DNA of 64,000 nt, from the NCBI GenBank assembly GCA_043777315.1, contig JAYVPW010000150.1:1-64000 (forward strand), given 5' to 3'. Shown here one piece after another: positions 4,209 through 49,137 of the stretch; position 1 is the stretch's first letter, and each line of letters opens with the position of its first letter. Below the pieces are notes generated by a model that had not been told where the DNA came from, searched no databases, and was given only the letters and a program-made list of their open reading frames with translations. Origin of the DNA: Spartobacteria bacterium (GTDB taxonomy: Bacteria > Verrucomicrobiota > Verrucomicrobiia > Chthoniobacterales > Chthoniobacteraceae). A program made the position numbers and the translations under genes.

Positions 4209-4431
4209 GCGCGGTGGCGCGTCCTTGAGAATTCATTAGTCCGAGGAGGAGGAGCGCCCGCTTCCACCGCCCCGCCGGGGCGCATCGCTTTCTTCCGTCG
4301 TCCGGTGGCTGACGCCACCGGCTAATTTCCGGAGGCCCTCCGGGCCAGGCGATCCGGAAACGACTTGGCAAGCGCTCTCATCGCCAAAGGCCCCCCGAGC
4401 TAAGGTCTGGAAACGTCGTTCGGCATTTGCG

Positions 4432-12839: not shown

Positions 12840-12898
12840 GCCCGCGATATTTTCGGGAGATGCGGATGGGTGCAAGCTTTCGACCGGTTCGGTCCGAT

Positions 12899-13060
12899 CC
12901 GGGTAGCGCGCTCGTCTCGAGCGCTGGTTTCGGCGTCCCGCCGAAACGAACTTTTCTGACGCCGGCATTGTTCGGACGCGCTCCGATCTCCCCGCGTCTT
13001 AAAAAAAGTGCGTCGCGGCGGGACGCCGCGACCAGCGCTCGAGACGAGCGCGCTACCCGG
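12899..13060. repeat. MITE-like inverted-repeat element, copy b (~162 bp)
   Basis: perfect terminal arms CCGGGTAGCGCGCTCGTCTCGAGCGCTGG...; lies between the dehydrogenase-domain gene and the cyt-c gene. Confidence 0.8.
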
Positions 13061-13134
13061 ATCGGAGTTCCGCGCTCGCGCAAAAAAGGCTGCGCCCTCG
13101 CGGACGCAGCCTTTTTGAATTTACGCGCGTCGGA

Positions 13135-17723: not shown

Positions 17724-18791
17724 ATGCCCACCCAAACCACCGCTGAATCGCCCACCGCCGTTCCTGTCCCCGACTCCGCTGCGCCGGTCGACGACAAAGC
17801 TGCCGCCGCCATGCTCGTCGATGCGTTCAACCGCATCTCCGCTGAGATGGGCAAATTCATCGTCGGCCAAAGCGAAGTCATCGAGCAGCTCGTCATCGCG
17901 GTGCTCGCCGGCGGGCATTGCCTGCTCGAAGGCGTCCCCGGCCTCGCGAAAACCGCGATGATTCGCTCGCTCTCGCGCTGCATGGATTTGTCGTTCCGGC
18001 GCATCCAATTCACCCCCGACCTGATGCCGTCCGACATCACCGGCACCGACATCATTCAGGAAGATCCCGCGACCGGTCACCGCAAGTTCGTGTTCCAAAA
18101 AGGCCCGATCTTCGCGCAAATGATCCTCGCGGACGAAATCAACCGCACCCCGCCGAAAACGCAGGCCGCACTGCTCGAAGCGATGCAGGAACACTCCGTC
18201 ACGATCGGCGGCAATACGCTGAAACTCGAAGAGCCGTTCTTCGTCCTCGCGACGCAAAATCCGATCGAGCAGGAGGGAACGTACCCGCTCCCCGAGGCTC
18301 AGCGCGACCGCTTCATTTTCCTCGTGAAAGTCGAGTATCCGAGCCGCGAGGAAGAGCGCCAGATCATCGCCCGCACCACCGGCACCTTCGGCGCAGAACT
18401 CCAGCCCGTGATCCACGGCGACCAGATCATCGCCCTCCAGCAGGTCGTCCGGAAAGTCCCCGTGCCCGAGCACGTGATGGATTTCGTCCTCGACCTCGTC
18501 CGTTTCACCCGCCCGAAAAGCACCGACGCTCCCGCCTTCGTCAAAGAGCTGATCGAGTGGGGCGCCGGCCCGCGCGCCTGCCAAAATCTCGTCCTCGCCG
18601 GCAAAGTCCGCGCCGTCCTCCGCGGCCGTTTCCACGTCACCATCGACGACATCGAAGCGCTCGCTCCGCCGATCCTCCGGCACCGCATCGTCGCCACTTT
18701 CAACGCCGAGGCCGAAGGGATCAACGTGGACGACATCGTTGCGCGGATTTTGAAGATCGTGCCGCGAGGCGAGGCGAAGCGGACCCTTTGA
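17724..18791 (+). CDS. MoxR-family AAA+ ATPase
   Basis: Walker A GVPGLAKT, Walker B ILADEINR, typical 355-aa MoxR layout. Confidence 0.9.
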
Positions 18792-19214
18792 AAATTTTGA
18801 ATTTTGAATTCTTAATTTTGAATTGAGCGCGCTCCGTGAAGGACAACGTCATCCGGGAGAAGGCTTATTCTTTTGCGCTCGCGATCATCGGATTTTGCCG
18901 CGAATTGCGGCAGATTCGTGAGTTCGAGTTGAGCCACCAGCTTTTCAAGAGCGGCACCAGCATTGGAGCCAATGTAGAGGAGTCGCAAGCCGCCCAAAGC
19001 CGCGCCGACTTTCTCTCGAAAATGTGCATCGCCTCCAAAGAAGCGCGCGAAACTTTGTATTGGTTAAGCCTCATCCGGGACGACCCGTATTTCGTGCAAC
19101 TCCCCTCCGCACCTCTGCTCTCCGACTGCTCCGAAATCGTCCGCATCCTCACCTCAATCGTGAAAAGCACCGGCGACTCCTGAATTCAAAATCAAGAATT
19201 CAAAATTCAAAATT
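18791..19214. repeat. low-GC cassette bounded by inverted AT-rich heptamer arrays (AATTTTG)n: left arm 18791-18824, right arm 19183-19214 (one mismatch); carries a four-helix-bundle gene
   Basis: arms are reverse complements; interior ~52% GC against ~65% in the flanks. Confidence 0.8.
18836..19183 (+). CDS. four-helix-bundle protein (23S rRNA intervening-sequence protein family, TIGR02436/PF05635)
   Basis: family motifs QLFKSGTSIGANVEE, ADFLSKMCIASKEARETLYWLSLI; 115 aa. Confidence 0.8.
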   Translation: MKDNVIREKAYSFALAIIGFCRELRQIREFELSHQLFKSGTSIGANVEESQAAQSRADFLSKMCIASKEARETLYWLSLIRDDPYFVQLPSAPLLSDCSEIVRILTSIVKSTGDS

Positions 19215-19222
19215 GTCTCCCC

Positions 19223-20128
19223 GTGGCCCACGTCTCCGACTTCCTCACCCCCGCCGATCTCCAAAAGATCAGCAACCTCCAAGTCCTCGCGCGCCAGGTT
19301 GTCGAGGGCTTCTGCTCCGGCCTGCATCGCTCGCCGCACAAAGGTTTCAGCGTCGAGTTCAAGCAGCACCGCCAGTACGTCCCCGGCGACGAAATCCGCC
19401 ACATCGACTGGCGCGTCTTCGGCCGCAGCGACCGCTTCTACATCCGCGAGTACGAAGAGGAGACGAACCTCCGCGCCTCGCTGCTGCTCGATCTCAGCGG
19501 CTCTATGAATTACGGCGGCGCCAAAAACGGCGGCCCGAGCAAATACCAATACGCCACGCGACTCGCCGCCTGCCTCGCGTATCTCATGCTCCAGCAGCAG
19601 GACACCGTCGGCCTCGCCACCTTCGACACGAAGATCCGCAAATACATCCCGCCGCGCTCCCGCGTGAGTCATTTGAAAGTGATCATCGACGAGCTCCAGC
19701 GCGCCACTCCCGGCGGCGAAACCGAGCTAGGCGACGTCTTCCACGACCTCGTCCCGAAGCTCCACCGCCGCGGCCTGCTCATCGTGATCTCCGACTGCTT
19801 CGGCGACGTCGCCGCGCTCATGAAAGCGCTCGCGCACTTCCGCCACGCCAAGCACGAGATCCTCATTTTCCAAATCTGGGACCGCGACGAACTCGAGTTC
19901 CCCTTCAAAAACTGGACGCAATTCGACTGTCTCGAACGCGACGGCGTGAAGCACCTGCTCGACCCCGTGCAACTCCGCCAGGCCTACCTCGCGAACCTCG
20001 AGAAATTCCGCGAAGACCTCACCCGCGGCTGCCGCCGGCACAAGATCGACCTCGTCCCCTTCACGACCGACCAGCCGTACGCCGATGCGCTCGCCGCGTA
20101 TCTGAGCCGGAGGATGGCGCGCGGATGA
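19223..20128 (+). CDS. DUF58 (vWA-like) protein, MoxR partner
   Basis: [26 protein letters not shown] and LLLDLSGSM motifs. Confidence 0.85.
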
Positions 20129-20691
20129 AAGGGGACGGGGAAAGCGGAGAACGTCGAACGTCGAACGTCGAACGTCGAACGTCGAACGAGGAGGAAGCGG
20201 CGAATGGAACGCTGCAAGGCGCTTCGAGGGTTTGGGACTTGGAGGAACGATTGCTCGATTACTCCGTTCGGATCATTCGCCTCGCCGATGCGCTTTTTCC
20301 GTCGCGCGCTGGGAACCATGTCGCGGGTCAATTGCTTCGCTCCGGCACTTCTCCCCTGCCAAATCACGGCGAAGCGGAGTCAGCCGAATCGCCTGCCGAT
20401 TTCCTCCACAAACTCCGCATTTGCCTGAAAGAACTTCGCGAATCAAAGCGCTGGCTGCGTCTCATTCATCGCGCTCCCCTGATCGACAGACCGGAAAAAG
20501 TCGAGCCGCTCCTCGCTGAAACCGAAGAGCTCATTCGCATTTTCGTCGCCAGCATCCGCACCGTCGAGAGCCGCCAGTTCAGTCCCCGCGTCCGTGAGGA
20601 CGCCTCCGATTCCGATACTTCGACGTTCGACGTTCGACGTTCGACGTTCGACGTTCTCCCCTCCCAGCCCCCACCCGAGGAAACCCCATGA
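20125..20691 (+). CDS. four-helix-bundle protein (23S rRNA IVS protein family), second copy; start uncertain (ATG 20125 overlaps the DUF58 stop; the conserved core begins ~20230); stop overlaps the next ATG (ATGA)
   Basis: family motifs [41 protein letters not shown]; both termini are translated from the heptamer arrays ([12 protein letters not shown] / [12 protein letters not shown]). Confidence 0.6.
20131..20667. repeat. heptamer-armed hairpin element E1: left arm GGGG..GGAGAACGTC(GAACGTC)4 at 20131-20187, right arm (GACGTTC)5TCCCCTCCC at 20618-20667; the loop carries a four-helix-bundle gene
   Basis: arms are reverse complements with a G-rich/C-rich clamp; same family as E2-E4. Confidence 0.8.
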
Positions 20692-22841
20692 ATTTCCTCA
20701 ACGCCGCCCTCCTCGCCGGCACCCTCGCCCTCGCGATCCCGATCATCATTCACCTCTTCCACAAGAGCCGTTTCGAGGTGGTGAAATGGGGCGCGATGCA
20801 CCTGCTCGAGTCGGTCATCCGCACCAATCAAAAGCGCGTCCGCATCGAGCAGCTCATCCTCATGGCGATCCGCGCCGCGATCCCGCTGCTGCTCGCACTC
20901 GCCATGGCGCGGCCCATCTGGCAGGGCGCGCAGAAGCTCCTCGGCGAGGCGAAAACCTCCACGATCCTGCTGCTCGACAACAGCTACTCGATGGAAGCCG
21001 GTCGCACCGGCACCTCGAATTTTTCCCTCGCCCGCGACGAAGCCACGCGCGTCGTCAACGACCTGAAACGCGGCTCCGACGTGCAGGTCGTTTTGATGGG
21101 AGAAGGGGGCTCCTCCCTGCTCGACCAGCCGACCTACGACACCGGACGCATCACGCAGGGGCTCACGAAATTGAGCGCGGGTTACGGCACCGCAACCGTC
21201 CCGGCGTCGCTCGATTTTGCGGCCGGCATCTTCGAGAAAATGCACGAGTCGGCGCGGAATCTCGTCGTCCTCACTGACTTCCAGCGCGTCAGTTTCGAGG
21301 CCACGGAAGACGCCGCGCTCGGGCAGGCGCTCGACCGGCTGAAAAAGCAGACGATCGCGCCGCACGTCACATTTTTCGATGTCGGGCAGGAGGTGAAAGA
21401 CAACGTCGCGCTCGAGTCGCTCGACTTCTCGCGCCTCATGGTCGGCGTCGGACAGAAGATCCAAATCCGCGCGAACCTCCGCAATTTCGGCGACGCCAAT
21501 TACCCCGACCTGCGCGTCTATTTCAAAGCCGACGGGAAGGAAAAATCGGTTTCCCAGATCGCACTTTCGCCGCACGAAAAGCGGCAGGTTCTTTTCACGC
21601 ACGCGTTCGATACGCCCGGCTCGCACGTCGTCGAAGTCTTCGCCGACGCGGACGCGCTCAAGGCCGACAACAGCTACCTCGCGAGCATTCCCGTGCGCGA
21701 CAAAGTCCCGGTGTTGCTGATCAACGGCGACCCGAGCGGCGAGCCGATGAAAGGCGAAACCGACTTCGCCGAAATCGCGCTGGCTCCGAACAGCGCGGCC
21801 CGCGTCGAACTCGCCGACCTGCTCGCGACGAAGGTCGTGCGGGCCGAAGAACTGGACCCGAAACGCCTCTCCGAGTCGGCAGTCGTGATCTTGGCCAATG
21901 TCCGCAAACTCAATGACGATCAGCTTCGCGGGCTCGAGGAGTTCGTGAAAAACGGCGGCGGCCTCCTCGTTTTCAGCGGCAACCGCGTCGATCCGGCGTG
22001 GTACAATTCCGCCTTTTTCAAAGACGCGAAGGGCCTGCTCCCGCTGATCCTCGGCCCGCTCGCCGGCGACCTGAAAGAGAGTTCGCCGTCCGTCTCCGTC
22101 GTCTCGCAGCGTTTCGACAATCCCGCGCTCGAACTCTTCAACGATTCACGCAACGGCAACCTCTCCGACTCCGCGATCAAGCTCTGGTTCAAGCTCAAGG
22201 AGCCCGGTGCCTCCGCCGTGACGACGCTCGCCCGACTCGAAAACGGCGACCCATTTCTCGTCGAAAAACCGTTCGGCGAAGGCCGCGTGATCCAGTGCTC
22301 GACGGCACTCGACGCCGACTGGAGCAACCTGCCGATGCGCCCGACCTATTTGCCGCTCCTCCAGCGCCTCTCGGTCTATCTCGCCTCCACGATTTATCCG
22401 TCGCGAAATCTCGACGTCGGCAAGCCGCTCATCGCGCTCCTGCCCGCCGCGGATGCGGGAAAAAAAGCGACGATCACGAACCCCGACGGCGCGGCGGTCG
22501 AGGTGCTGATCGTGAAGAAAGGCGAGCGCGGCGTGGTCGAGTTTGGCAAGACCCAGCGGCCCGGACTTTACACCCTCACGGCGGCCGGCGGGCAGCCGGT
22601 GCATTACGTCGTCAACGCGTCGCGCCGCGAGTCCGACCTCCAGCGATTGAGCGATGCGGAGATCGCCGATTTCGCGAAACAGCATGGCGTCGCGGTCGTC
22701 CACAACGGCGCGGAATACAAGGCGCTGGATCAGTCGCGGCGGTTCGGGACAGAGCTGTGGAAACCAATCCTGTGGGCGCTGCTCGGAATGGTTTTTGTGG
22801 AGGTGGTGGTGGAGCAGAAATTTGCGGGGAGGCGGAAATGA
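20688..22841 (+). CDS. BatA-like membrane protein (N-terminal double-TM domain + vWA-like region + C-terminal TM), 717 aa
   Basis: N-terminus [24 protein letters not shown]...LILMAIRAAIPLLLALAM matches the BatA N-terminal double-transmembrane domain; LLLDNSYSM vWA MIDAS-like. Confidence 0.7.
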   Translation: MNFLNAALLAGTLALAIPIIIHLFHKSRFEVVKWGAMHLLESVIRTNQKRVRIEQLILMAIRAAIPLLLALAMARPIWQGAQKLLGEAKTSTILLLDNSYSMEAGRTGTSNFSLARDEATRVVNDLKRGSDVQVVLMGEGGSSLLDQPTYDTGRITQGLTKLSAGYGTATVPASLDFAAGIFEKMHESARNLVVLTDFQRVSFEATEDAALGQALDRLKKQTIAPHVTFFDVGQEVKDNVALESLDFSRLMVGVGQKIQIRANLRNFGDANYPDLRVYFKADGKEKSVSQIALSPHEKRQVLFTHAFDTPGSHVVEVFADADALKADNSYLASIPVRDKVPVLLINGDPSGEPMKGETDFAEIALAPNSAARVELADLLATKVVRAEELDPKRLSESAVVILANVRKLNDDQLRGLEEFVKNGGGLLVFSGNRVDPAWYNSAFFKDAKGLLPLILGPLAGDLKESSPSVSVVSQRFDNPALELFNDSRNGNLSDSAIKLWFKLKEPGASAVTTLARLENGDPFLVEKPFGEGRVIQCSTALDADWSNLPMRPTYLPLLQRLSVYLASTIYPSRNLDVGKPLIALLPAADAGKKATITNPDGAAVEVLIVKKGERGVVEFGKTQRPGLYTLTAAGGQPVHYVVNASRRESDLQRLSDAEIADFAKQHGVAVVHNGAEYKALDQSRRFGTELWKPILWALLGMVFVEVVVEQKFAGRRK

Positions 22842-23015
22842 GGGGGGAGGCGGAGAACGTCGAACGTCGAACGTCGAACGTCGAACGTCGAAGTAGGAGC
22901 GCGCGGCGTGGCGTTTCCGTGCATCGCGCGGCGCAGTTGAACTCACGACATTTTCGGAATTCGCCACGCCGGAATCCGCCACTTCGACGTTCGACGTTCG
23001 ACGTTCGACGTTCGA
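22842..23015. repeat. heptamer-armed hairpin element E2 (arms (GAACGTC)4/(GACGTTC)4, ~88-bp loop)
   Basis: GAGGGGGGAGGCGGAGAACGTC(GAACGTC)3GAAG ... CTTC(GACGTTC)3GACGTTTTCCCCTCCCC. Confidence 0.85.
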
Positions 23016-23049
23016 CGTTTTCCCCTCCCCGCCACCCGGTTTTGTCCCG

Positions 23050-25812
23050 ATGAACGAACGCGTCGAAACCACCCTCCGCTTCGTCGGCGACTGGCCCGCC
23101 TGGCTCGGCCTCACCGCGGCCCTCATCCTCGCCGGAGCCGCATGGCTGCTGTATCGCCGCGATGTGCGTCTGGTGCGCCCGGCCTTGCGCTGGCTGCTCC
23201 CGACCCTCCGCGCGCTGGCGATCGCGATGATCGTTTTGATGCTGAGCGGACCAGTGCTGCATCATCGCAAAACGATCGGTCAGCTCTCGAAATTGCTGCT
23301 GTTCGTGGACAGTTCTCGGAGCATGGATTTGACCGATTCGTCGATGAGCATCGGGCGCAAAATCCTGATCCTTCAGCGCATGGGGATGCTCTCGCCGGAT
23401 GCGTTGAAAATGGATTTGCCGAAAGCCGGCGAAGCGCTCGCCGAGGCGCAGATGCTCGCGGAAAAGACGAAGCTTTCCACGAACGCGGACGATGCGGCGT
23501 TCAAAAAGATCACGACCGATTTCGCAGGGAAAATCACGGTGGCGCGGGAGCTGATCGCGAGCGCGGGAAGCGCGGGCGATCAACTCGCACGTTTCGGAAA
23601 AGAGCTCGGCGAACCGGCGCGGGAGATCGCCGGACGGGAGTTCAAAAAAATCGATGACCGCGCGCGTGCGACGCAGGATCTCACGCGCCTCGGCGAGAGC
23701 GCGCGGCGCTGGCAGGACGAGCTCGAGGAGGCATTTCAGAAGACCGCGAACGAGGCTGCCGCGGGCGACCTTTCGCCGCTGCGCGCGGCGCTGCAGAAGT
23801 TCGACGCGATGCCGCGGACGCAGCGCGTGCAGTCGCTTTTGCTCGAAGGCGGCTCGCCGCCGATGCTCGCGAAAGTCGCCGAGACTTATGACGTGCAACT
23901 CCTTTCGCTCGACAGCGGCGAGGCCAAGAAAATCTGGCAGCCGACCGCCAAAAACTCGTCGCTTCCGACCGCGCTTCCGAAACCCGTCGGCGACGTGACG
24001 AATCTCGCGACGGGTGTGAAAGCCGGCGCTGGCGAGCAGGAAAAAGAGCAGCGCGGCGCGGTCGTCGTGTTCAGCGACGGCCAGCATAATGACGGCGATT
24101 CGCCGGTCGAAATGGCGAAGATGCTCGGCGCGCGCGGGATGCCGATTTTCACCGTCGGCATCGGCAGCCAGACGCGTCCGCGCGATCTCGCGGTCGTGAA
24201 AACGGAGGGGCCGGACGCCGTGTTTTATCAGGATCGCGTGCGCGGGCAGGTCACGCTGAAGGACGACATGCCGGCGGGGATGCCTTTCAAAGTCGCGATC
24301 CAGGACGGCGACAAAATGCTGTGGGAACAGCAGGTGATCAGCGACGGGACGCAGCTCCGAAAAGTGCCGTTCGACTTCGCAGTGAAGGAACTCGTCGAGG
24401 CGAAATTGGCCGCTGGCAAAGGGAGCGGCGTGCAGGTTTCCGGCGTCCCGCTCGATTTGAAAGTGAGCGTCTCGCAGATCGAAGGCGACCGTGAGCCGAG
24501 CAATAATTTCGGCAGCCTCCGCGTGCGCGCGGTGACGCAGAAACGCAAGATTTTGATCATCGACGGACGCCCGCGCTGGGAGTCGCGCTACCTGCGGAAT
24601 CTCTTCGATCGCGATGAGCAGTGGGACGTCACGTCGGTCATCGCCGGCGCGAAAGTCGGCGAGCCAGGATTCGCCCGTGGGACGAAGCCGGACGAATTTC
24701 CGACCGACCCCGCGACGCTCGCCGGATTCGATTTGATCATCCTCGGCGAGACGCCGCGCACGCTCTGGAAAGGCGAGGAATTGCAGTGGATCAGCGACTT
24801 CGTGAACAAGCGCGGCGGGGCGCTGATTCTCGTCGATGGCGCTCGCGGACGATTCAAGGAATACGCCGACTCGCCGCTCGCGCCGCTCTTTCCCGTCGAG
24901 TGGAAAGCGCCCGCGGTGCGCGAGGGAATCACGAAGATTTCGCTCACGGGTCGGAGCGCAAATCTCGCGCCTTTCGCGCTCGCCGCGGACCGCGCGCAGA
25001 ACGCCGAAGTGTGGAGCAAGTTGCTCCCGCCGCACTGGATTTCGGGCGCGAGCGCGCTGCCCGGCGCGGAGCGTTTGCTCGATGCGGAAGTGGGCGGGCA
25101 CGCGGTTGCCGCGGTGGTTTATCGCCCGTTCGGCGCGGGCAAGGTGCTTTATCACGCGTTCGACGAATCGTGGCGCTGGCGCTACGAAATCGGCGACCTG
25201 CATCACGTCCGATACTGGAATCAAATCGCCAACTGGATCGCGGAATTGCCCTTCGCCGTGCGCGACAAATTCATCTCGCTCGACGCGGGCGCGCTGACCT
25301 ATCGGCCCGGCGAATCCGCCGACATCCGCGTGCGTCTGCGCGACGGAGAAGGCAAGCCGGTGAGCAACGCGAGCGTCGATGCCGTACTCTACCGCGACGG
25401 GCAAAAAGTCGCGGGCATCAGGCTCAGCGCCGACGACAATGCGGGCGGACTTTTCCACGGAAAAACCGCGGCGCTGGAGCCGGGAAATTACGAGATCGGG
25501 ATCGAGTCCGCGGCGATCCCGCAAAATGAACTCAAGGCGCGCACGACCTTCAAAGTCGAGCCGCGCGAGACGGGCGAACTCACGCTGCTGAACCTCAACG
25601 AAGACCTGCTCCGGCAGATGTCGGCGGCGAGCGGCGGTCAATATCTGCGCGAGGAAAACGCGGGCAAACTGATCGATCTCCTCGCGCCCTTGAGCCAGGG
25701 CAAGGTGATCGAGAGCGAGACGCCGCTGTGGCAGAGCTACGCGTGGTTTCTGCCGATCGTGGCGCTGCTGACGGCGGAGTGGATCGTGCGGAAACGGGTG
25801 GGGCTTTTGTGA
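23050..25812 (+). CDS. BatA/BatB-like vWA-domain membrane protein, 920 aa
   Basis: N-terminal double-TM, vWA-like block (VVVFSDGQHNDGDSP), C-terminal TM. Confidence 0.65.
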   Translation: MNERVETTLRFVGDWPAWLGLTAALILAGAAWLLYRRDVRLVRPALRWLLPTLRALAIAMIVLMLSGPVLHHRKTIGQLSKLLLFVDSSRSMDLTDSSMSIGRKILILQRMGMLSPDALKMDLPKAGEALAEAQMLAEKTKLSTNADDAAFKKITTDFAGKITVARELIASAGSAGDQLARFGKELGEPAREIAGREFKKIDDRARATQDLTRLGESARRWQDELEEAFQKTANEAAAGDLSPLRAALQKFDAMPRTQRVQSLLLEGGSPPMLAKVAETYDVQLLSLDSGEAKKIWQPTAKNSSLPTALPKPVGDVTNLATGVKAGAGEQEKEQRGAVVVFSDGQHNDGDSPVEMAKMLGARGMPIFTVGIGSQTRPRDLAVVKTEGPDAVFYQDRVRGQVTLKDDMPAGMPFKVAIQDGDKMLWEQQVISDGTQLRKVPFDFAVKELVEAKLAAGKGSGVQVSGVPLDLKVSVSQIEGDREPSNNFGSLRVRAVTQKRKILIIDGRPRWESRYLRNLFDRDEQWDVTSVIAGAKVGEPGFARGTKPDEFPTDPATLAGFDLIILGETPRTLWKGEELQWISDFVNKRGGALILVDGARGRFKEYADSPLAPLFPVEWKAPAVREGITKISLTGRSANLAPFALAADRAQNAEVWSKLLPPHWISGASALPGAERLLDAEVGGHAVAAVVYRPFGAGKVLYHAFDESWRWRYEIGDLHHVRYWNQIANWIAELPFAVRDKFISLDAGALTYRPGESADIRVRLRDGEGKPVSNASVDAVLYRDGQKVAGIRLSADDNAGGLFHGKTAALEPGNYEIGIESAAIPQNELKARTTFKVEPRETGELTLLNLNEDLLRQMSAASGGQYLREENAGKLIDLLAPLSQGKVIESETPLWQSYAWFLPIVALLTAEWIVRKRVGLL

Positions 25813-25847
25813 TGATGAATGCGCTGCTGATTTTCGCGGGGTTCGCG

Positions 25848-25963
25848 GAGGGGGCAAACGTCGAACGTCGAACGTCGAACGTCGAACGTCGAAGTGGGGA
25901 AACTGAAGAGACGCTGCGCGTCGGACTCTGCGTTCGACGTTCGACGTTCGACGTTCAGCGTTC
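25848..25963. repeat. heptamer-armed hairpin element E3 (~35-bp loop)
   Basis: GAGGGGGCAAACGTC(GAACGTC)3GAAG ... (GACGTTC)-type arm ...TTTGCCCCTC. Confidence 0.85.
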
Positions 25964-26002
25964 GACGTTTGCCCCTCTTCCGTCCGCAACCCGACTCCCG
26001 CC

Positions 26003-29000
26003 ATGAGCTACAAACTCGACCCCAAAATCCTCTCCAAACTCCGCGCCTTCGCCGCCCGACGGCGCAAGCTGATCATCATCCGCGGCATCTGCACCGCGAT
26101 CGCGATGCTGCTCGCGACGATGATGACCGTGGCGTTCGTCGATCTCGTTTTCGTGCTCCCCGACGGCGTGCGCTGGGGGCTCAGTGCCGTCGCTTATCTT
26201 GCCGTGATCATCGCGGAATGGCGCACGTGTCTGACGCTGCTCGCTCATGCGCCCGGTCCGCGGCGGCTGGCGCGTTTGCTCGAACATGCGGAGCCGAAGC
26301 TGCGCGAGGATTTACTTTCCGCGGTCGAGCTGGGGACGAGCAAGGATGGGGAGGTCGTCGATTCGGAGCAGTTCCGCGCGCTGGTGCAGAGCGATGTCGC
26401 GGCGCGGATGGAAAACGTCGATGTCGATCGGTTGCTGCCGGTCGGTTTGGTGCGGCGGTATCTCGGGATCGCGGCGGCGATTTTCGTGGCGATGATCGTG
26501 GCGTTCGTGATGACGGGGACGCAGTTCGGCACGCTGATGATGCGGGCGCTGCTGCCGATGGCGAACTTCGCGCGCGTCTCGAAATTCAAGGTCGCGATCG
26601 TCGAGCCGAAGCCGGCGGAAATGCCGGTGGCGTTCGGCGATGCGGTGCCGCTGCTGATCGAAGTTTCCGGCGGACGGACGAGCAAAGCGGTGCTCGAGAT
26701 ATTCACGAAAACCGGGGGGCGCGAAGTTGTGCCGATGACTCCGGCGGAGGGCGATCGCTTCTCGTCCACGATCCAAGTGGCGCGCGAGAACGTCGAATAT
26801 CGGGTGCGGGCGGGCGACGCGATCACGCGCAAATACCGGCTGGCGGCGATGCCTCGTCCGCACATCGCGAAGTTCGAGAAGAGCTACACTTTTCCCGCTT
26901 ACTCACGAGTCGCTCCGAAGGCTGTGACCGAGGAAAATGGTGATCTCGCGGCGCTGGAAGGGAGCGAAGTCGAGCTGCGGCTCGAGCCGAATCAGAAGAT
27001 CAAGAGCGGCGAACTCGTGATCGAACAGGGGCGCGTGACCTCGACCGTGCCGCTCGTCGAGGGCACCGGAAATCGGCTCACCGCAAAGATTTCACTGAAA
27101 ACTTCGGGGACGTATCGGGTGCATCTCGTCGCGGCGGAGAGCGGATTCGAGAACAAGTTCAGCCCGGAATACGAGATCCGCGCGGTGCCGGACCTTGTCC
27201 CGCAGGTCGATCTGGAATTGCCGAAAGACGACCTCATTTTGCCGGCAAACGAGATCGTCGATCTGGAAGGAACGGCGACCGATGACCAGTCGCTCGCGAA
27301 GGTCTCGCAGCTCGTCCGCGTGAACGAGGGTCCGTGGCGCGAAGTGCCGCTGGCAAAGGATCCGGGGGCGAAGACGAAAGTGGAGCGGCGCTGGGATTTG
27401 TTCGAGCAGGGCGTGAAGCCGGGCGATTTGCTGACGACGAAATTGCTCGCGGTGGATTTGAAGGGGAACAAGTCGGAGTCGAGGTCGCTGCAGATCACGA
27501 TCACGGCGTCGGGCTTCGAGACGAAGCGGGTGACCGGGCTGGATGCGCAGCGCGAATTGCTGCGGGTGATCGGCGAGGCGCGGGCGGCGGCGGACGCGCT
27601 GGAGAAGCAGGGGAACGAGGCGCGCGATGCGTTCGCCCGGCTGCCCGAAAACGATTCGCAGCGGAAGCAGACGGCGGTGACGGCGGCGGCGGCAATGGCG
27701 ACTTTCGATGCGAAAGCGGCGGCGATTTGGGGGCAGTTGACCGCGACGTTGCGCGCCTCTTCGCCGGGACATCAGAGCGCCGATCTCGCGCTACTCGCCC
27801 GACTGCTTTCACGCATGGATACAGGATCCGCGGACAATGCGCGCGATGCGCTCGGGCTCGTTATGCCCGATGCGGGTTCGCCGTTTGCGCGCGATCAAAT
27901 GCGTGAATTTGCCGACGGAACCTCGCGCACCGGACAGCGCGCGCGGTCGGCGCACGACGGTTATAAATCGCTCGTCGGAGCCGAGGAGCTCGATGTGCTC
28001 GCGGAGAATATGTCGGTCGTCGCGAAAGAGCAGGAACGGCTCGCGGCGCTCGCGCAAAAGAGCGGCACGGATGCGGCGAAATGGGCGCAGATCGCGAACC
28101 GGATCCGGGTGATCGTTGCGGAGACGCGGAGCCTGGAGCAGTTGATGACCTCGACGGGCGAGCATCTCGGCGGCGCGTTTCCGGACCGGATCAAACGGCT
28201 GGCAAAGGAGATCGAGAAACAGCGGACGGTGATCGACGCGGCGATCACCGCAGGCACGCCGGATCAGAAGTTGAACGAGCCGACGAAACTGCTCGCGCAG
28301 GCGTGCGCGAATGCGGCGAGGAGCCTTTTGGATTTCGAACGCGAGACGGCCTACACGCCGGTGAAGAAGGTCACGGAAATGACGAAAGAGACGGGGCCGA
28401 CGTACGCGAATTTCGAGCGGTTGCGGGCTGATTTTCAGCAGGTGAAGGCGATGGACAAGTTGCCGGCGGATGCTGTGGCAGGCTTGATCTCGCGGCGATG
28501 GGACGAACGGATCGAGGCGTTCAAAGCGCACGGCGATGCGGAGGAGGCGCGGCCGGATTCGGACGCGTATTTTGTGAATGATGTGCGGTCAGTTTCGCTC
28601 GCGCTGAAGGCGACGCACGAGGCGGCGACGGACGACGCGGCGCTGTTGAAAGAGAAGCTGGCGGCGCTGGAGAAAAATTTCCGGCTGCTCGAGAGCGGGC
28701 ACAATTTGTTCGAGGTGGCGGATGGTTTGAAGCAGCTCGCGGGGGCGGAGAAGTGGGAGATTTACAGCGCCCGCGCGCGCACGTCGGCGCCGCGGGATTG
28801 GAGCTGGCTGGAGGCGCGGCTGCGGGCGCTGCCGGAGGAGCTGGGCAAGGCGGCGCTCGATGAGGAGACGAAGAAACTGACGGGCGAGGCGCAGAAGATT
28901 TTGTGGCAGGTGCTGCAGCAGCCGTTCGCGCAGCAGGTAGCGCAGGAGATGCCGCAGCGGTTCAATCCGCAGCGGGAGCCAGTGGCGAAGCGGGCGGAAA

Positions 29001-31447
29001 TCGAGAAGACGGCGGCGATGGTGAATCAGGCGCTGGCGATTTTCCGCAAGCCGATGCAGGAGGCGCGCGAGCAGCTCGCGCAGATGGTGCCGAAGCTGTC
29101 GGAGATCGCGGCGCAGCTCGCGAAAGAGACGGAGGAATTGAAAAAAGAGACGCAGGAGGAGGCGCAGAAAACGGCGGAGAAATCGCCGGCGGAAGCGCAG
29201 GCGGAGACGCAAAAAACTTTGGCGAAACAGGAGAAGCTGAACTCGGAGGTCGGCGCGTTGAAGGATGCGCTGCGGGCGGATGCGAACCAGCAGGACGTGG
29301 CGAAAAAGGAAGGGCGCGAGCGGGCGCGCGATGCGGACGATGCGCTGGCGATGTTGAAGGAGCCGCCCGTCCGGGCTGAACAGGCTTTGCTGGAAGCGGC
29401 GCAGGCGCCCAAAGCCGATCTGCGGAAAGAGGCGCTGAACGGCGCGACGGAGCATCAGCAGAAACTCGCGGATGCGCTGAATCAGCTCGCGGAGCACTAC
29501 GCCAAAGTGGAGGAAGGGAAGGCGGACGAGACGCGGATGGCGTTGCGCGAGACGGAGGAAAAGAACGGCGTGAAGGAGCAACTCGACGCGCAATTTGCTA
29601 AGGCCGAGCAGATGGCGGAACTCGCGCAGAAGTCGCCGGAGGAACTGCTGGCACAGCTCGAAAAAGCGCTCGCGAAAAGTCCGGCGATGCAGAAGGAGCT
29701 CAGCGAAATTTCCAAGAACACGCTGGCCGACGCGCAGAAGCAGCTCGATCAGGCAAGCCGGCAGGAGAATCAGGTGGCGCAGGATTTGGCGAAAATGACG
29801 GCGCAGGCGACGGCTCCGAACGCGCCGCAAACGCAGACACCGCAGACCGCGAAGCAAGCTGTGGAGAAGGCTCAGCAGGCGGCGAAGCAATCGCTCGACG
29901 CGGCGAAGAACGCGCAGAAACAGGCGGACGAAGCGGTGCAGGCGGCGAAGGCGGCGAGCAATCAGCCCGCCGTGGAGCAGGCGCGGCAGGCGCGGACGGA
30001 AGCGGCGGCGGCGGCGCAAGCGGCCGAGCAGGCGGCGCAAGCGGCGGAGCAAATGACGAAGCCGAGTGAGGCCGCGAACGCAGCAAAAGCGGTGGTGGAG
30101 AAATCGGCGGAAGCGGCGAAGGATGCGGCGCAGGCGGCGGGTGATGCGGCGAAGGCGCAGGCGACCGCGCAGCAGACGGCGGCGCAGCAAACGGGTGATC
30201 CGCAGGCGAAGAATCAACAGACTTCAAAAGAAGCGGGGGAGGCGACGCAGGCCGCACAACAGGCGGCGCAGGCGGCGAAAAACGCGGAAGCGGCGGCGCA
30301 GCAGGTCGCGGCGATGACGCAGCCGCAGAATGCCGCGACCCCGCAAATGGCGCAAAACGCGACGCCTCCCGCAGCGCCGGCAGCACCTCCCGCGGCGACT
30401 CCGAATTCACCAAATCCAGCGACCCCGGCACCGGCGAAAAATGCGCAGCTCGCGCCGGCGGCGGCGCAGCAGCCGGAGATCGCAAAGGCCGCGAATCAAG
30501 CAGGGGAGCAGGTTGCGCGGGCGGGGCGGCACGAGGAGCGGCTGCAAAACATGGCGGTCGGGGAGAAGCTGCAGCAGCTCGGGAGTGACGTGAAGCAGAC
30601 GGCGGCAGAGCAGGTTCCGAATGCACAGCAGGCACTCGCGAAGGCGGAGAAACCGGCGCAAGCGCAGGCGGCGGTGAACGCGGCGGACTCGCAACTCGCG
30701 GCGCAGGCGGCGCAGTTGCAGGCGGCGGCGAATCCGGCGATGGCGGCTCCTCCGCAGACGGGGCAAGCGACGTCGCAATCGGCCACGCCCGCGGATGCGC
30801 AAGCTCCGGCGACGCCGGACAGCGCGCAGGCGGCGGGGGCTCCGCAGAGTGCGCAGGCGAGCGCCGCGAATTCGCCTCCGCCGAGCGGGAAGCCGCCGGG
30901 CCAGCAAAGCCCGGCGATGCAGGCGCAGAGCGGCTCTCCGGCCGGTGCGCCTCCGCAGGCCGCGCCCGCGCAGCAGGGGATGCTGGCTGATCTCGCGGCG
31001 ACGCCCCCTTCACCGCAGGAACAAGTGTGGATGGCGCGGACGCTCGATGCGCTGGATGCGGCGTTGCATTCGGAGCCGCCGGGCGCGGGCGAGAAAAGCG
31101 ACCCGCAGGCGGGCGCGCAGGCGCAGGCCGCGATGGCGGCGGCCGCGCAGGCTGCGGCTCAGGCGATGCGGGCGGAACGGAGCGAGAGTTCGGAGACGCC
31201 GGCAGGGATCGTCGGGAAGGGCGATTTGCAGGTGAAGTCGAAGGGCGGAGTGAAGGCGGCGGGGACGGCGCAGGCGTACGGGCAGACGGCGGAATTGAAG
31301 GGCGCGATCAAGCCGGGCGAATGGGGAAAATTGCCGAAGCAGGTCGCGGAGGAACTGAGCCAGGGCCAGCGGGAAAAGGTGGCGGGCGAGTATCGCAATC
31401 AGATCGAGACGTACTATCGGGTGATCGCGGAGAAATCGAAAAAGTGA
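26003..31447 (+). CDS. giant (1814 aa) membrane-anchored protein with long coiled-coil and Ala/Gln/Glu/Pro-rich low-complexity tail; Bat-operon associated; function unknown
   Basis: two N-terminal TM segments, >1000 aa of predicted coiled coil, A/Q/P-rich C-terminal third (DNA-level GCGGCGCAGGCGGCG repeats). Confidence 0.6.
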   Translation: MSYKLDPKILSKLRAFAARRRKLIIIRGICTAIAMLLATMMTVAFVDLVFVLPDGVRWGLSAVAYLAVIIAEWRTCLTLLAHAPGPRRLARLLEHAEPKLREDLLSAVELGTSKDGEVVDSEQFRALVQSDVAARMENVDVDRLLPVGLVRRYLGIAAAIFVAMIVAFVMTGTQFGTLMMRALLPMANFARVSKFKVAIVEPKPAEMPVAFGDAVPLLIEVSGGRTSKAVLEIFTKTGGREVVPMTPAEGDRFSSTIQVARENVEYRVRAGDAITRKYRLAAMPRPHIAKFEKSYTFPAYSRVAPKAVTEENGDLAALEGSEVELRLEPNQKIKSGELVIEQGRVTSTVPLVEGTGNRLTAKISLKTSGTYRVHLVAAESGFENKFSPEYEIRAVPDLVPQVDLELPKDDLILPANEIVDLEGTATDDQSLAKVSQLVRVNEGPWREVPLAKDPGAKTKVERRWDLFEQGVKPGDLLTTKLLAVDLKGNKSESRSLQITITASGFETKRVTGLDAQRELLRVIGEARAAADALEKQGNEARDAFARLPENDSQRKQTAVTAAAAMATFDAKAAAIWGQLTATLRASSPGHQSADLALLARLLSRMDTGSADNARDALGLVMPDAGSPFARDQMREFADGTSRTGQRARSAHDGYKSLVGAEELDVLAENMSVVAKEQERLAALAQKSGTDAAKWAQIANRIRVIVAETRSLEQLMTSTGEHLGGAFPDRIKRLAKEIEKQRTVIDAAITAGTPDQKLNEPTKLLAQACANAARSLLDFERETAYTPVKKVTEMTKETGPTYANFERLRADFQQVKAMDKLPADAVAGLISRRWDERIEAFKAHGDAEEARPDSDAYFVNDVRSVSLALKATHEAATDDAALLKEKLAALEKNFRLLESGHNLFEVADGLKQLAGAEKWEIYSARARTSAPRDWSWLEARLRALPEELGKAALDEETKKLTGEAQKILWQVLQQPFAQQVAQEMPQRFNPQREPVAKRAEIEKTAAMVNQALAIFRKPMQEAREQLAQMVPKLSEIAAQLAKETEELKKETQEEAQKTAEKSPAEAQAETQKTLAKQEKLNSEVGALKDALRADANQQDVAKKEGRERARDADDALAMLKEPPVRAEQALLEAAQAPKADLRKEALNGATEHQQKLADALNQLAEHYAKVEEGKADETRMALRETEEKNGVKEQLDAQFAKAEQMAELAQKSPEELLAQLEKALAKSPAMQKELSEISKNTLADAQKQLDQASRQENQVAQDLAKMTAQATAPNAPQTQTPQTAKQAVEKAQQAAKQSLDAAKNAQKQADEAVQAAKAASNQPAVEQARQARTEAAAAAQAAEQAAQAAEQMTKPSEAANAAKAVVEKSAEAAKDAAQAAGDAAKAQATAQQTAAQQTGDPQAKNQQTSKEAGEATQAAQQAAQAAKNAEAAAQQVAAMTQPQNAATPQMAQNATPPAAPAAPPAATPNSPNPATPAPAKNAQLAPAAAQQPEIAKAANQAGEQVARAGRHEERLQNMAVGEKLQQLGSDVKQTAAEQVPNAQQALAKAEKPAQAQAAVNAADSQLAAQAAQLQAAANPAMAAPPQTGQATSQSATPADAQAPATPDSAQAAGAPQSAQASAANSPPPSGKPPGQQSPAMQAQSGSPAGAPPQAAPAQQGMLADLAATPPSPQEQVWMARTLDALDAALHSEPPGAGEKSDPQAGAQAQAAMAAAAQAAAQAMRAERSESSETPAGIVGKGDLQVKSKGGVKAAGTAQAYGQTAELKGAIKPGEWGKLPKQVAEELSQGQREKVAGEYRNQIETYYRVIAEKSKK

Positions 31448-31530
31448 TGAAACTTTCGCAATTTCCAGACGCATCTTCCGTTCGTGGGGAAGTCAGAATT
31501 AGCCACGGACAGCCACGGACAGACACGGAC

Positions 31531-31665
31531 GGGGGAGGGGAGGGGAGAACGTCGAACGTCGAACGTCGAACGTCGAACGTCGAAGTGTCGGATTCCGAAA
31601 GGCGCGATGCTTTTAGCAGCATCTTTTTTGACTTCGACGTTCGACGTTCGACGTTCGGCGTTCGA
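31531..31665. repeat. heptamer-armed hairpin element E4 (~46-bp loop containing its own small hairpin GATGCTTTTAGCAGCATC); preceded by (AGCCACGGAC)x3 at 31501-31530
   Basis: GGGGGAGGGGAGGGGAGAACGTC(GAACGTC)3GAAG ... CTTC(GACGTTC)2GACGTTCGGCGTTCGACGTTTTC. Confidence 0.85.
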
Positions 31666-31710
31666 CGTTTTCTGAAAAATGCTCCGACGTTTGCGGCGGC
31701 GCTGCTGTCG

Positions 31711-32730
31711 ATGGCGATGACCTTTTTCACGGCAACAGGAAGCGCGGCGGACAAGGTGGACGAGGCGCTTTTTCGGGCGTCGCAGTTTTTGCTCTCGCAG
31801 CAGGATGCGACGAGTGGCGCGATCTCGTTGAAGGGGCGAAATGAGACGGCGATGACTTCGCTTTCCGTCCTCGCGCTCGCGTCGCTGGGACATCAGCCGG
31901 GCGATCCGACGCCGGAGGGGAAGGCGATGAAACGCGGGATCGGCTACATCGTGCGGACGGATTCGCAGCAGCCGGATGGGTATTTTGGACAGAAGGATAA
32001 TTCGCGGATGTACGGGCACGGGATCACGACGCTGATGCTCGCGGAGATGCTCGGGATGGGCGCGGATGCGGAGCAGGATGAGCTCGTGCGGGAGAAATGC
32101 CGGAAGGGGATTCAGTTGATTTTGCGCGCGCAAAAAGTGCCGAAGAACGAGCACTCGCGCGGCGGCTGGCGCTACACGCCGGACGATGCGTCGTCGGATA
32201 TGTCGGTGACGGTGTGGCAGGTGATGGCGTTGCGCGCGGCGAAAAACGCGGGGATCGACGTGCCGAAAGAGGCGATCGAGGACGCGGTGAAATACATCAA
32301 GCGGCTCTACGACAGCGAAGGCGAGAAGCGCGGGAAAATCCTGCCGGGCGGGTTCGGCTATCAGAACAAAGGGCGCGAACTTTCAACGACCGCGGAGGGG
32401 TTGCTCGCGCTGCAAGTGTGCGGCGAATACGACGCGCCGGAGACGCTCGGGGCGGCGGAACGTCTCTCGAAAGAAAAGATCCGGCCCGAGGAGCGCTGGT
32501 TTTATTACACGACTTATTATTACGCGCAGGGGATGTATCAGCGCGGCGGGAAATATGCGGAGGACGGGCGCCAAGCGGTTGCCGACTCGCTGCTGCCGCT
32601 GCAATCGCGCGAAGGCTCGTGGGAGCAGGGCGGGGGAGACGGGCGGGAGGCGGGGAAGGTTTACGCGACCTCGATGGCGATCCTCAGCCTTGCGGTGAAG
32701 AACCACTTTTTGCCGATCTACCAGCGGTAA
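31711..32730 (+). CDS. prenyltransferase/squalene-oxidase-repeat (alpha-alpha toroid) protein; start may lie upstream (a CTG/non-canonical start would restore a signal peptide FAAALLSMAMTFFTATGSAA)
   Basis: repeated QxxDGxW-like motifs (QQPDGYFGQ, RGGWRY, REGSWEQ). Confidence 0.6.
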   Translation: MAMTFFTATGSAADKVDEALFRASQFLLSQQDATSGAISLKGRNETAMTSLSVLALASLGHQPGDPTPEGKAMKRGIGYIVRTDSQQPDGYFGQKDNSRMYGHGITTLMLAEMLGMGADAEQDELVREKCRKGIQLILRAQKVPKNEHSRGGWRYTPDDASSDMSVTVWQVMALRAAKNAGIDVPKEAIEDAVKYIKRLYDSEGEKRGKILPGGFGYQNKGRELSTTAEGLLALQVCGEYDAPETLGAAERLSKEKIRPEERWFYYTTYYYAQGMYQRGGKYAEDGRQAVADSLLPLQSREGSWEQGGGDGREAGKVYATSMAILSLAVKNHFLPIYQR

Positions 32731-33059: not shown

Positions 33060-33320
33060 GTCACCTCCGTTCCCTCTCCCCCAACGCCAAACCGCCAGCC
33101 ATCCGCCACTGTTCTCCATCCCTCAGACCCTAGCCTCCGGCCGTCTCGCTCCGTGCTCCGCTTCCCGACGGAAGACGGCCAGCCGTTGCCCTCCGTTCTT
33201 CGTCTCCCGAGGTCGATCGCCATCCGTGCAGCGCCGTTCTCCACTTCCCGGCGTCGAGCCGCCAGCCATCCGCCTCCGTGCTCCACTTCCCAGCGGCAAA
33301 CCGCCAGCCGTGCGCCTGCC
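33060..33320. repeat. degenerate tandem repeat (~4 units of ~55-65 bp, core CCGCCAGCCATCCGCCnCCGTGCTCCACTTCCC)
   Basis: repeated CCGCCAGCC / GT(G/T)CTCCACTTCCC blocks; region 32730-33690 has no convincing ORF. Confidence 0.5.
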
Positions 33321-47245: not shown

Positions 47246-47262
47246 GGACGCGCTTGTGCAGT

Positions 47263-47425
47263 CCGGGTAGCGCATTCGTCCCGAGTGCTGGTTTCGGCGT
47301 CTCGCCGAAACGGACTTTCCTGACGCGTCAGCCTCCACGGACGCGTCTTGAGAATCAGACGTTTTTCAAAGTCCGTCGCGGCGGGACGCCGCGACCAGCA
47401 CTCGGGACGAGTGCGCTACCGGGAA
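47263..47425. repeat. MITE-like inverted-repeat element, copy c (~163 bp)
   Basis: arms CCGGGTAGCGCATTCGTCCCGAGTGCTGGTTTCGGCGTCTCGCCGAAACGGACTTT / rc. Confidence 0.8.
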
Positions 47426-49004: not shown

Positions 49005-49137
49005 GTCATCCTGAGCGAAGCCCGGCTCTGCGGGCGCAGTCGAAGGACCTCTTACTTTTCCCCCTCCTCAATCCGCGCGTCGTCGGGGGAAAAGTAAGAG
49101 GTCCTTCGGCTCCGCTGGCGCTGCGCTCAGGATGACC
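49005..49137. repeat. inverted pair of family-B repeats (copy 4 reversed at 49005-49054, copy 5 forward at 49085-49137) forming a ~130-nt hairpin between convergent genes; candidate bidirectional terminator
   Basis: GTCATCCTGAGCGAAGCCCGGCTCTGCGGGCGCAGTCGAAGGACCTCTTACTTTTCCCCC ... GGGGGAAAAGTAAGAGGTCCTTCGGCTCC...GCTCAGGATGACC. Confidence 0.75.

Follow-up and report, generated by a model that had tools for sequence, protein, structure and literature searches.

Heptamer-armed hairpins at the junctions of a MoxR/DUF58/BatA operon in a Spartobacteria bacterium: probable copies of a widespread insertion element of the intervening-sequence type

A 64,000-nucleotide stretch of genomic DNA from a Spartobacteria bacterium of the family Chthoniobacteraceae (assembly GCA_043777315.1, contig JAYVPW010000150.1, positions 1 to 64,000; hereafter the window) contains, between 17.7 and 32.7 kb, six genes that all lie on the + strand, with a hairpin at each of the five junctions between them (E1 to E5; Table 1). 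We think that these hairpins are copies of a widespread, selfish insertion element of the intervening sequence (IVS) type, which disperses by copying, has recently expanded in this operon and is tolerated there through arms that are neutral with respect to reading frame and through retained translational coupling; we assign this reading a probability of roughly 0.72. In its complete form the element would consist of a gene for a four-helix-bundle (4HB) protein placed between two inverted arrays of tandem heptamers, and E3 to E5 would be miniatures of the E2 type that lack this gene. An earlier reading of the window, made from its letters and open reading frames (ORFs) without database searches (the sequence-only reading), had reported five such elements at five consecutive junctions of a MoxR/DUF58/BatA/VWA operon, and all five were found at or near the positions that it gave.

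The stem arms of the five hairpins are 38-72 nt long and 83-98% complementary. In an inverted-repeat scan, complementarity was 92% for E1, 98% over 44 nt for E2, and 95% for both E4 and E5; for E3 it was 83% over 72 nt, with a perfect heptamer core. Tandem Repeats Finder reported a period of 7 for the arrays, with GAACGTC or its complement present in 5.3-5.7 copies per arm in E2-E5 (GC-type elements) and AATTTTG in 4.6 copies in E1 (AT-type). The 21-mer (GAACGTC)3 occurs in the window exclusively in E2-E5, with 25 register matches vs 0 expected. RNA folding reproduced the long stems, as the sequence-only reading had anticipated, with z-scores of -13.3 for E3, -10.6 for E4, -9.9 for E5, -6.9 for E2, and -3.9 for E1. 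That reading was also right about GAACGTC arms in four elements and an AT-rich fifth, although the clamps that it described at both ends are incomplete in E5, where the 3' CTCCCC clamp is missing. E3, E4, and E5 reach ~10-20 nt past the ends that it assigned to them, and its placement of one element in each intergenic boundary holds for E1-E4 but not strictly for E5: the ancestral start of the next gene precedes this element, which is in frame with it. The 5' arm of E1 abuts the TGA stop codon of the MoxR gene (18789-18791), and the loops of E3-E5 comprise ~40-100 nt and contain no 4HB gene. Directly 5' of E5, at 31501-31547, the 10-mer AGCCACGGAC is repeated three times and is followed by three copies of GGGGA; these repeats fall within the extended reading frame of the last gene of the operon. 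The E5 loop contains a terminator-like stem followed by TTTTTT (31606-31629, + strand), and such sites are no commoner in this region than in shuffles.

Two of the loops, those of E1 and E2, carry a 4HB gene, not one as proposed from the sequence alone. The E1 ORF matches PF05635 (E=2.5e-21) and TIGR02436 (92.5 bits), and the 4HB domain of E2 matches TIGR02436 with 78.9 bits; the curated cutoff of this model is 24 bits. The cargo of the complete form is a 4HB gene of ~115 aa (TIGR02436/PF05635, Avd-like), and the family matches the solved pentameric structures 2RLD and 2GSC. The E1 and E2 proteins share 40% identity over an 80-residue local alignment, and E1 is a separate AT-rich subtype. The GC-type copies have more than the heptamer in common: a G-rich 5' flank (GGGGAGGCGGAG-like) is found in E2-E5, and a C-rich 3' tail (CCCCTCCC.GCC.CCACCCG) in E2-E4. 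The ends of the E3 loop resemble those of the E2 interior (the left end by direct reading), and the reverse complement of the E5 loop corresponds to the right interior end of E3 (19/20 nt) and of E2; therefore, E5 is an element of the same kind in the opposite orientation. Because their loop ends are E2-like, E3 and E5 look like internal-deletion derivatives of the E2 type. The E4 loop has no detectable homology to the E2 interior, so only its arms and flanks lead us to assume that E4 arose by deletion.

Evidence that the hairpins are insertions comes from relatives. We compared the orthologous operon in three related Chthoniobacteraceae assemblies: GCA_038207335.1 (L114/L197), GCA_028293625.1 (L110), and a long-read assembly (L195, 1-10000) in which the operon gene calls are fragmented, probably by frameshift errors, and unreliable as such, with the nucleotide alignment still usable. 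In L114/L197, a single ATGA overlap is found at the DUF58/BatA junction and another at the junction of BatA with the next gene, the 1815-aa gene and the last gene meet in a TGATG overlap, and the remaining two junctions are spacers of 60 and 25 nt. The junction spacers of L110 measure 100, 21, -4, and 109 nt. L195 aligns to the window with 80-85% identity and has gaps of 11 nt (at the E3 site) and 68 nt, vs 217 and 197 nt in the window; its last junction is a TGATG overlap. At the E4 junction, the relatives have unrelated spacers of 25, 68, or 109 nt. There is no GAACNNN array at the operon loci of the three relatives and no heptamer seed at their empty J2, J3, and J5 sites, and their spacers fold no better than shuffles. 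Because the orthologous operons in all three relatives are without them, the elements are lineage-specific insertions. Five gains in the lineage of the window are far more parsimonious than losses in three lineages so precise that ATGA or TGATG was restored. E2, E3, and E5 would have entered such overlaps, and E1 and E4 would have entered sites where relatives have short spacers. At the MoxR/DUF58 junction of L114 (1420-1455), GAACGTC-like units form an inverted pair of 12 nt, AAAACGCCGAAC...GTTCGACGTTTT, whose fold is not better than that of shuffles. A GC-type element may have left this pair as a footprint at the junction that the AT-type E1 occupies in the window.

Comparison with relatives also bears on the function that the sequence-only reading suggested for the hairpins, namely operon punctuation by design: host-selected regulatory structures that segment the mRNA into units differing in stability or translation. 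On the one hand, the hairpins are very stable, each is located right at a gene boundary, their reading-frame arrangement (see below) appears tuned, and RNase III cuts stems of this kind in the Coxiella IVS (PMC4990558). On the other hand, the hairpins are missing from the operon in three relatives, where the genes are coupled by ATGA/TGATG, the stems show no bias of G:U over A:C mismatches, and the same family is found in unrelated operons of many phyla, which fits a parasite better. We therefore consider host-selected punctuation unlikely. Since the hairpins are lineage-specific insertions, any segmentation of the transcript would be a side effect, and it is unlikely to be the reason for their existence. 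No promoter is evident within the element, which would be carried on the host transcript; there its arms would pair as a duplex of ~40-60 bp. The analogy of 23S rRNA IVSs with a 4HB gene makes this duplex a likely substrate of RNase III, and cleavage would sever the polycistronic mRNA at each junction.

How an operon could tolerate five such insertions is suggested by their reading frames. Seven and three have no common factor, so a heptamer array encodes the identical seven codons in each frame, and the arms act alike whichever frame is read. Not one stop codon occurs in GAACGTC or GACGTTC arrays in any frame of either strand, and GC-type copies, with arms open in all frames, would keep translational continuity. 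The 5' arm of E1 has stop codons in 3/3 frames, and the 5' arms of AT-type elements in general have stops in at least two frames in 57/61 cases and in all three in 31; AT-type arms would stop translation in all frames just after the upstream gene. E2, E3, and E4 are each spanned by a bridging ORF. That of E2 has 188 codons, including the 4HB domain, and runs from ATG 20125, which overlaps the DUF58 stop, to TGA 20689-20691, which overlaps the BatA start. The E3 ORF (71 codons) runs from ATG 22838, in an ATGA with the BatA stop, to TGA 23051-23053, in an ATGA with the next start; the E4 ORF (64 codons) runs from ATG 25812, in a TGATG with the upstream stop, to TGA 26004-26006, in an ATGA with the start of the 1814-aa gene. 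Leading from the old start to the new one, these ORFs would keep translational coupling. ATGA is duplicated on both sides of E2 and E3, and E5 occupies an in-frame position in the last gene, with the ancestral ATG 31447 before it and the signal-peptide region after it. According to a rough estimate, an open frame together with the right length class would arise by chance with a probability of ~1/9 to 2/9 per element, or ~3e-4 for four. For comparison beyond the window, we kept three cases with ATG starts: the ATGA-ORF-ATGA layout is also present in L027 (a metagenome-assembled genome, or MAG, of Chthoniobacteraceae) and L104 (a Verrucomicrobiota MAG), and in L028 (a Phycisphaerae MAG) the ORF ends in an ATGA overlap and its ATG lies 10 nt past the upstream stop. 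We infer that the insertions that survive are those that keep translational coupling. The stop-free GAACGTC arms, the bridging ORFs of E2-E4, and the in-frame position of E5 are new here.

The architecture is not peculiar to this operon. A metagenome scan with a 4HB alignment yielded 80 loci, 77 of which were usable, and arms were scored as inverted repeats located within 200 nt of the 4HB gene with a best period of 7. Such arms surround 60/77 metagenomic 4HB genes vs 5/214 control ORFs from those loci; their units include AATTTTG, AGTTTTG, AATTAAG, AATTACG, AATGTTT, and GGTTTTG. The left neighbor is co-oriented with the 4HB gene in 48/57 cases. The 5' arm mostly starts within ~17 nt, on either side, of the stop codon of the left neighbor, and in tandem contexts the 3' arm mostly ends within ~30 nt of the next start. 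The hosts are tight operons: LemA-M48 peptidase, AddA/B-like helicase-nuclease, mutA-mutB (methylmalonyl-CoA mutase subunits), and MFP-AcrB. At 20 of the metagenomic 4HB loci, no flanking rRNA was found, and one tRNA was. The median dN/dS ratio of the 4HB ORFs is 0.16 (29 unsaturated pairs); the protein is under purifying selection. The LemA-M48 junction was compared among LemA proteins that are 92-98% identical: it contains full 4HB elements in L122, L127, L133, L144, and L176, miniatures or remnants of 45-70 nt in L200 and L202-205, and a 15-nt spacer in L206. The 5' array at this junction reads on from the last codons of the host gene, AGT TTT TAx, a hint that insertion may have involved microhomology.

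GAACGTC-type arrays were found at no fewer than 108 loci in species-representative genomes. Verrucomicrobiota, Planctomycetota, Gemmatimonadota, Acidobacteriota, Kiritimatiellota, Lentisphaerota, Bacteroidota/Rhodothermales, Desulfobacterota, Burkholderiales, and others are represented among the matches listed, and approximately half of the arrays among these matches have an inverted partner within 1.5 kb. At least 35 loci are clearly paired GC-type hairpins, 3/35 of which enclose a recognizable 4HB gene. The GAACGTC type exists in many phyla, mostly as miniatures without a 4HB gene. The 4HB protein of the E2 type is 64-68% identical to 4HB proteins encoded within GAAC[AG]TC arms in a Victivallales MAG and in a SeepSRB2 deltaproteobacterial MAG. 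Within one long-read Gemmatimonadales MAG, at least nine copies are dispersed, and their loops are homologous. Judged by eye, L101 seems to have arisen from an L097-like element by internal deletion.

The arrays vary from 2 to ~28 units, the upper end being a solo array of ~28 tandem GAACGTC units in L024 (4160-4358). In L083 (3004-3217), a (GAGAAC)n hexamer array is nested within a heptamer hairpin, and L013 (2068-2593) is a complex locus with several arrays and no recognizable 4HB gene. The 4HB gene of L027 (2240-2700) lies in (TCAGGRR)n arms, whereas L039 (5211-5745; Geomesophilobacter) has a different 4HB subtype, with a GACGTTC array on its 5' side and a GAACGTC array on its 3' side; as these two loci show, the gene is not tied to one heptamer sequence or to one order of the arms. 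Phages were considered as carriers of the GC-type array and rejected, as the 21-mer was found in only 2 of 2.9 million viral contigs.

The variable copy number could point to another origin, in which the arrays arise in place as microsatellites through replication slippage and hairpin-templated repair. Further tandem repeats adjoin E5, and the 5' array at the LemA junction continues a heptamer-like host sequence, AGTTTTT. However, the empty J2, J3, and J5 sites offer no heptamer seed from which an array could have grown, four junctions share not only the heptamer but also similar non-repeat flanks and loop ends, the same 4HB subfamily occurs with the same heptamer in three phyla, and dispersed copies have homologous loops. 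The shared non-repeat parts largely refute such an origin, which we regard as very improbable. Even less credence can be given to an assembly or binning artefact, for example one that creates chimeric inverted repeats. It is true that the source is a MAG and that many arrays elsewhere are located at contig ends, but an artefact is unlikely because an independent Logan contig, L109 (934 nt), holds the MoxR 3' end together with the E1 4HB gene, the parts that were read in it, and is long enough for both arms. In addition, like hairpins are found inside long contigs of short- and long-read assemblies from many groups, and the genes on either side of the hairpins keep intact reading frames.

Several observations weigh against a selfish, dispersing element. 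There is no transposase, recombinase, or reverse transcriptase inside it. A clear target-site duplication was not found in 25 AT-type elements or at the LemA junction, and none is discernible at E1, E4, and E5. ATGA (or ATGAA) does flank E2 and E3, as well as the hairpins in L027 and L104, but selection on the stop/start signal would keep ATGA too. Our case for mobility thus rests on distribution and not on mechanism, since the element is without such enzymes and without a clear target-site duplication beyond ATGA. On the sense strand, 74 stems show no excess of G:U (73 G:U vs 94 A:C mismatches); their complementarity may be kept at the DNA level, or the copies may be young. The five copies occupy five consecutive junctions, with none in the other ~51 kb of the window, and are more clustered than random dispersal would have them; local spread, a preference for ATGA/TGATG, and tolerance specific to this operon are possible causes. 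At the LemA junction, repeated loss of an old element could explain the pattern in place of repeated gain. Finally, bridging ORFs in other GC-rich genomes are not separable from chance, with GTG/TTG starts and spurious long ORFs being common there.

If the element does not move itself, it may be moved by something else. In many respects, the hairpins resemble MITEs (miniature transposable elements with inverted repeats): they are small, multi-copy (four of the GC type in the window), bounded by terminal inverted repeats, and absent in three relatives. The transposase-encoding parent of a MITE is lacking, as the full-length form encodes a 4HB protein only, and we know of no transposase activity and no catalytic motif in the 4HB family. 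The elements could then be non-autonomous and mobilized in trans by an unlinked enzyme, such as a REP-associated or IS200/IS605-type Y1 transposase or another hairpin-recognizing enzyme, with the 4HB gene as a passenger; this is compatible with copies of a selfish element. Most GC-type copies have no 4HB gene and yet are multi-copy and dispersed, the solved homologues of the 4HB protein are small helical pentamers, and E2 and E3 are both flanked by ATGA, as for enzymes with a short specific target. Even so, we find this explanation less likely than not: no such enzyme was found, although none was searched for, purifying selection on the 4HB protein and its near-constant enclosure by arms suggest a functional tie between protein and arms, and the arm sequences vary widely around a constant 7-nt period, unlike REP or IS605 ends.

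The closest known counterparts are the 4HB-encoding IVSs of 23S rRNA genes, which are known in Leptospira, Coxiella, Xanthomonas, and other bacteria and are located in helix 25 or 45. The IVS of Coxiella burnetii is 428 nt long and has a 28-bp terminal stem and an S23p (4HB) ORF; its 5' stem contains 3-4 tandem GACAGAT heptamers, the number of which varies among strains, RNase III cleaves within the stem in vitro, and the ends were mapped by rapid amplification of cDNA ends (PMC4990558). The elements described here similarly have a long terminal inverted-repeat stem, tandem heptamers, and, in E1 and E2, a sense PF05635/TIGR02436 ORF in the loop. With 4HB cargo of the 23S IVS family, heptamer stems, and the same layout as in Coxiella, the suggestion that IVS-type elements reside in an mRNA operon is supported. 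What sets them apart from the rRNA IVSs is their location in a protein-coding operon, the existence of miniatures without a 4HB gene, the bridging ORFs, and the in-frame insertion.

Other families of bacterial hairpin repeats, several of them well known from operons, share some of these features. The Correia/NEMIS elements of Neisseria and the ERIC/IRU elements of enterobacteria are small intergenic hairpin repeats that are co-transcribed with their neighbors, can be cut by RNase III or alter mRNA stability, and vary in presence. Like them, our elements are hairpin repeats between operon genes with a patchy distribution among relatives, but there is no sequence relation, and our elements have heptamer arms, a 4HB gene in the full form, and no TA duplication. 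Repetitive extragenic palindromes (REP/BIME) are imperfect palindromes of 20-40 nt with a conserved (tetranucleotide) head that are associated with RAYT transposases and present in high copy at gene 3' ends. Our elements are likewise extragenic palindromes at gene 3' ends within operons; however, they measure 100-560 nt, with stems of 38-72 nt and a period of 7, and are thus not of the REP/BIME kind in size and period; no RAYT was identified, although RAYT genes were not searched for. Rickettsia palindromic elements are selfish palindromes that are tolerated in frame within coding regions, much as the 5' coding part of the next gene accommodates E5 and bridging ORFs span E2-E4, although the Rickettsia elements belong to another sequence family and taxon, and the copies in the window are mostly at junctions.

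The heptamer period and the 4HB cargo have each been met separately. Intergenic tandem heptamers are known as the cyanobacterial STRR sequences and as TAACTGA repeats in Beggiatoaceae, Cyanobacteria, and Bacteroidetes (PMC4679880). They share with our elements the 7-nt period, an intergenic position near start codons, a variable copy number, and a patchy distribution across phyla, but they are described as direct arrays without cargo, whereas here inverted pairs surround a 4HB gene or its remnant. Some of the published heptamer arrays may be half-elements. Avd of diversity-generating retroelements is a nucleic-acid-binding pentamer homologous to the 4HB proteins, and the 4HB cargo shares its fold and family (PMC10053308); however, no reverse transcriptase and no template/variable repeat pair is present beside the 4HB genes described here. 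In addition, the presence of 4HB genes amid cas genes has been put forward as a sign of a possible functional association (PMC3936711). Our results suggest that the 4HB genes of cas loci reflect insertion instead of functional membership.

The 4HB or "23S rRNA IVS protein" family has been known for ~30 years, yet its genomic behavior is poorly described, even though our search returned more than 5000 4HB relatives. In the literature searched, no general link appears to have been described that ties 4HB genes to inverted heptamer arrays and to insertion at gene junctions: in keeping with the claim of novelty in the sequence-only reading, we found no paper that generalizes heptamer-armed 4HB elements, although the Coxiella paper noted heptamers in one IVS. 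If 4HB genes almost always reside in heptamer-armed hairpins between genes, then a general insertion element would be at work, with the rRNA IVSs as one of its landing sites, and 4HB genes should not be read as functional members of the operons in which they are found, for example in cas loci (PMC3936711). The element also offers a specific hypothesis on why heptamer repeats are widespread between genes. It predicts that RNase III would cleave within mRNAs, that the 4HB protein would bind heptamer arrays, and that ribosomes would translate through the hairpins and so keep downstream genes coupled. A bolder proposal, which we make only tentatively, is that 4HB genes and inverted heptamer arrays together form an unrecognized cross-phylum class of mobile hairpins, of which the ORF-bearing 23S IVSs are the copies that landed in rRNA. 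The 7-nt period would then be functional, through frame independence and possibly by offering the pentameric 4HB protein a site to bind in each repeat; this protein would act as the maintenance or mobility factor of the element, and would be a mobility protein of a new kind. If this were true, frame-independent arms would allow residence at operon stop/start junctions, and it would become clear why 4HB genes have repeatedly been reported as seeming members of cas and other operons.

The genes that host the hairpins are listed in Table 1 together with the elements. In the public annotation, the last gene (P0127) starts at the internal ATG 31711, 3' of E5, and it illustrates a practical consequence for annotation: hairpins can encode bridging ORFs, and in-frame insertions can shift called starts.

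Table 1. Coordinates in the window of the five hairpin elements and of the six operon genes
Feature	Coordinates	Strand	Details
E1, full-length AT-type	18790..19217	+	Arms 18790-18827 / 19180-19217, (GAATTTT)-type heptamers; 4HB gene 18836-19183 in loop
E2, full-length GC-type	20125..20691	+	Arms 20137-20186 / 20619-20662, (GAACGTC)5.7; 4HB domain 20245-20571
E3, miniature GC-type	22838..23053	+	Arms 22842-22913 / 22962-23033
E4, miniature GC-type	25812..26006	+	Arms 25851-25893 / 25933-25975
E5, miniature GC-type	31531..31675	+	Arms 31545-31586 / 31631-31672; loop inverted relative to E2, E3
Gene 1, MoxR AAA+ ATPase	17724..18791	+	AAA_3 E=5e-64
Gene 2, DUF58/VWA protein	19223..20128	+	Pfam domains
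Gene 3, BatA N-terminal domain + VWA	20688..22841	+	Pfam domains
Gene 4, 920-aa protein, weak VWA match	23050..25812	+	Orthologues in L110, L114
Gene 5, 1814-aa protein	26003..31447	+	No Pfam match; orthologues in relatives 1694 to 1815 aa
Gene 6, weak resemblance to prenyltransferase/squalene-cyclase repeats	31447..32730	+	Ancestral start ATG 31447

A promoter and terminator scan of 16.5-33.5 kb gave no signal beyond shuffled expectation. No rRNA was detected in the 64-kb window by an Rfam scan at gathering scores, and the elements themselves match no Rfam 15 family at the gathering score; at E-value thresholds too, there was only sub-threshold likeness to the hairpins of miRNA precursors from plants and animals. 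Tandem repeats of 9, 12, 21, and 27 nt are densely packed in the 3' part of the 1814-aa gene (29900-31160), and they suggest that the protein has a repeat region of low complexity or coiled structure.

The window contains other repeats and structured sequences outside the operon. A match to the Acido-Lenti-1 RNA family (RF01687) is located at 4302-4347 on the + strand, with a score of 37.3 bits that only just exceeds the gathering threshold of 37 bits. Two homologous hairpins of ~170 nt, at 12893-13066 and 47262-47424, belong to a family unrelated to the heptamer elements; they start with TCCGGGTAGCGC..., followed by ...CTGGTTTCGGCGTC.CGCCGAAACG. A third hairpin, at 34732-34859, has a head (GTCCCGGGTAGGGTGGGCGTCCCGCC) related to that of this pair, and the three are probably copies of another MITE-like element of this genome. 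An isolated hairpin at 49034-49115 has a 31-bp stem that is 94% complementary and a 20-nt loop, and a 42-nt tandem repeat is present in 4 copies, with 68% matches, at 33149-33317.

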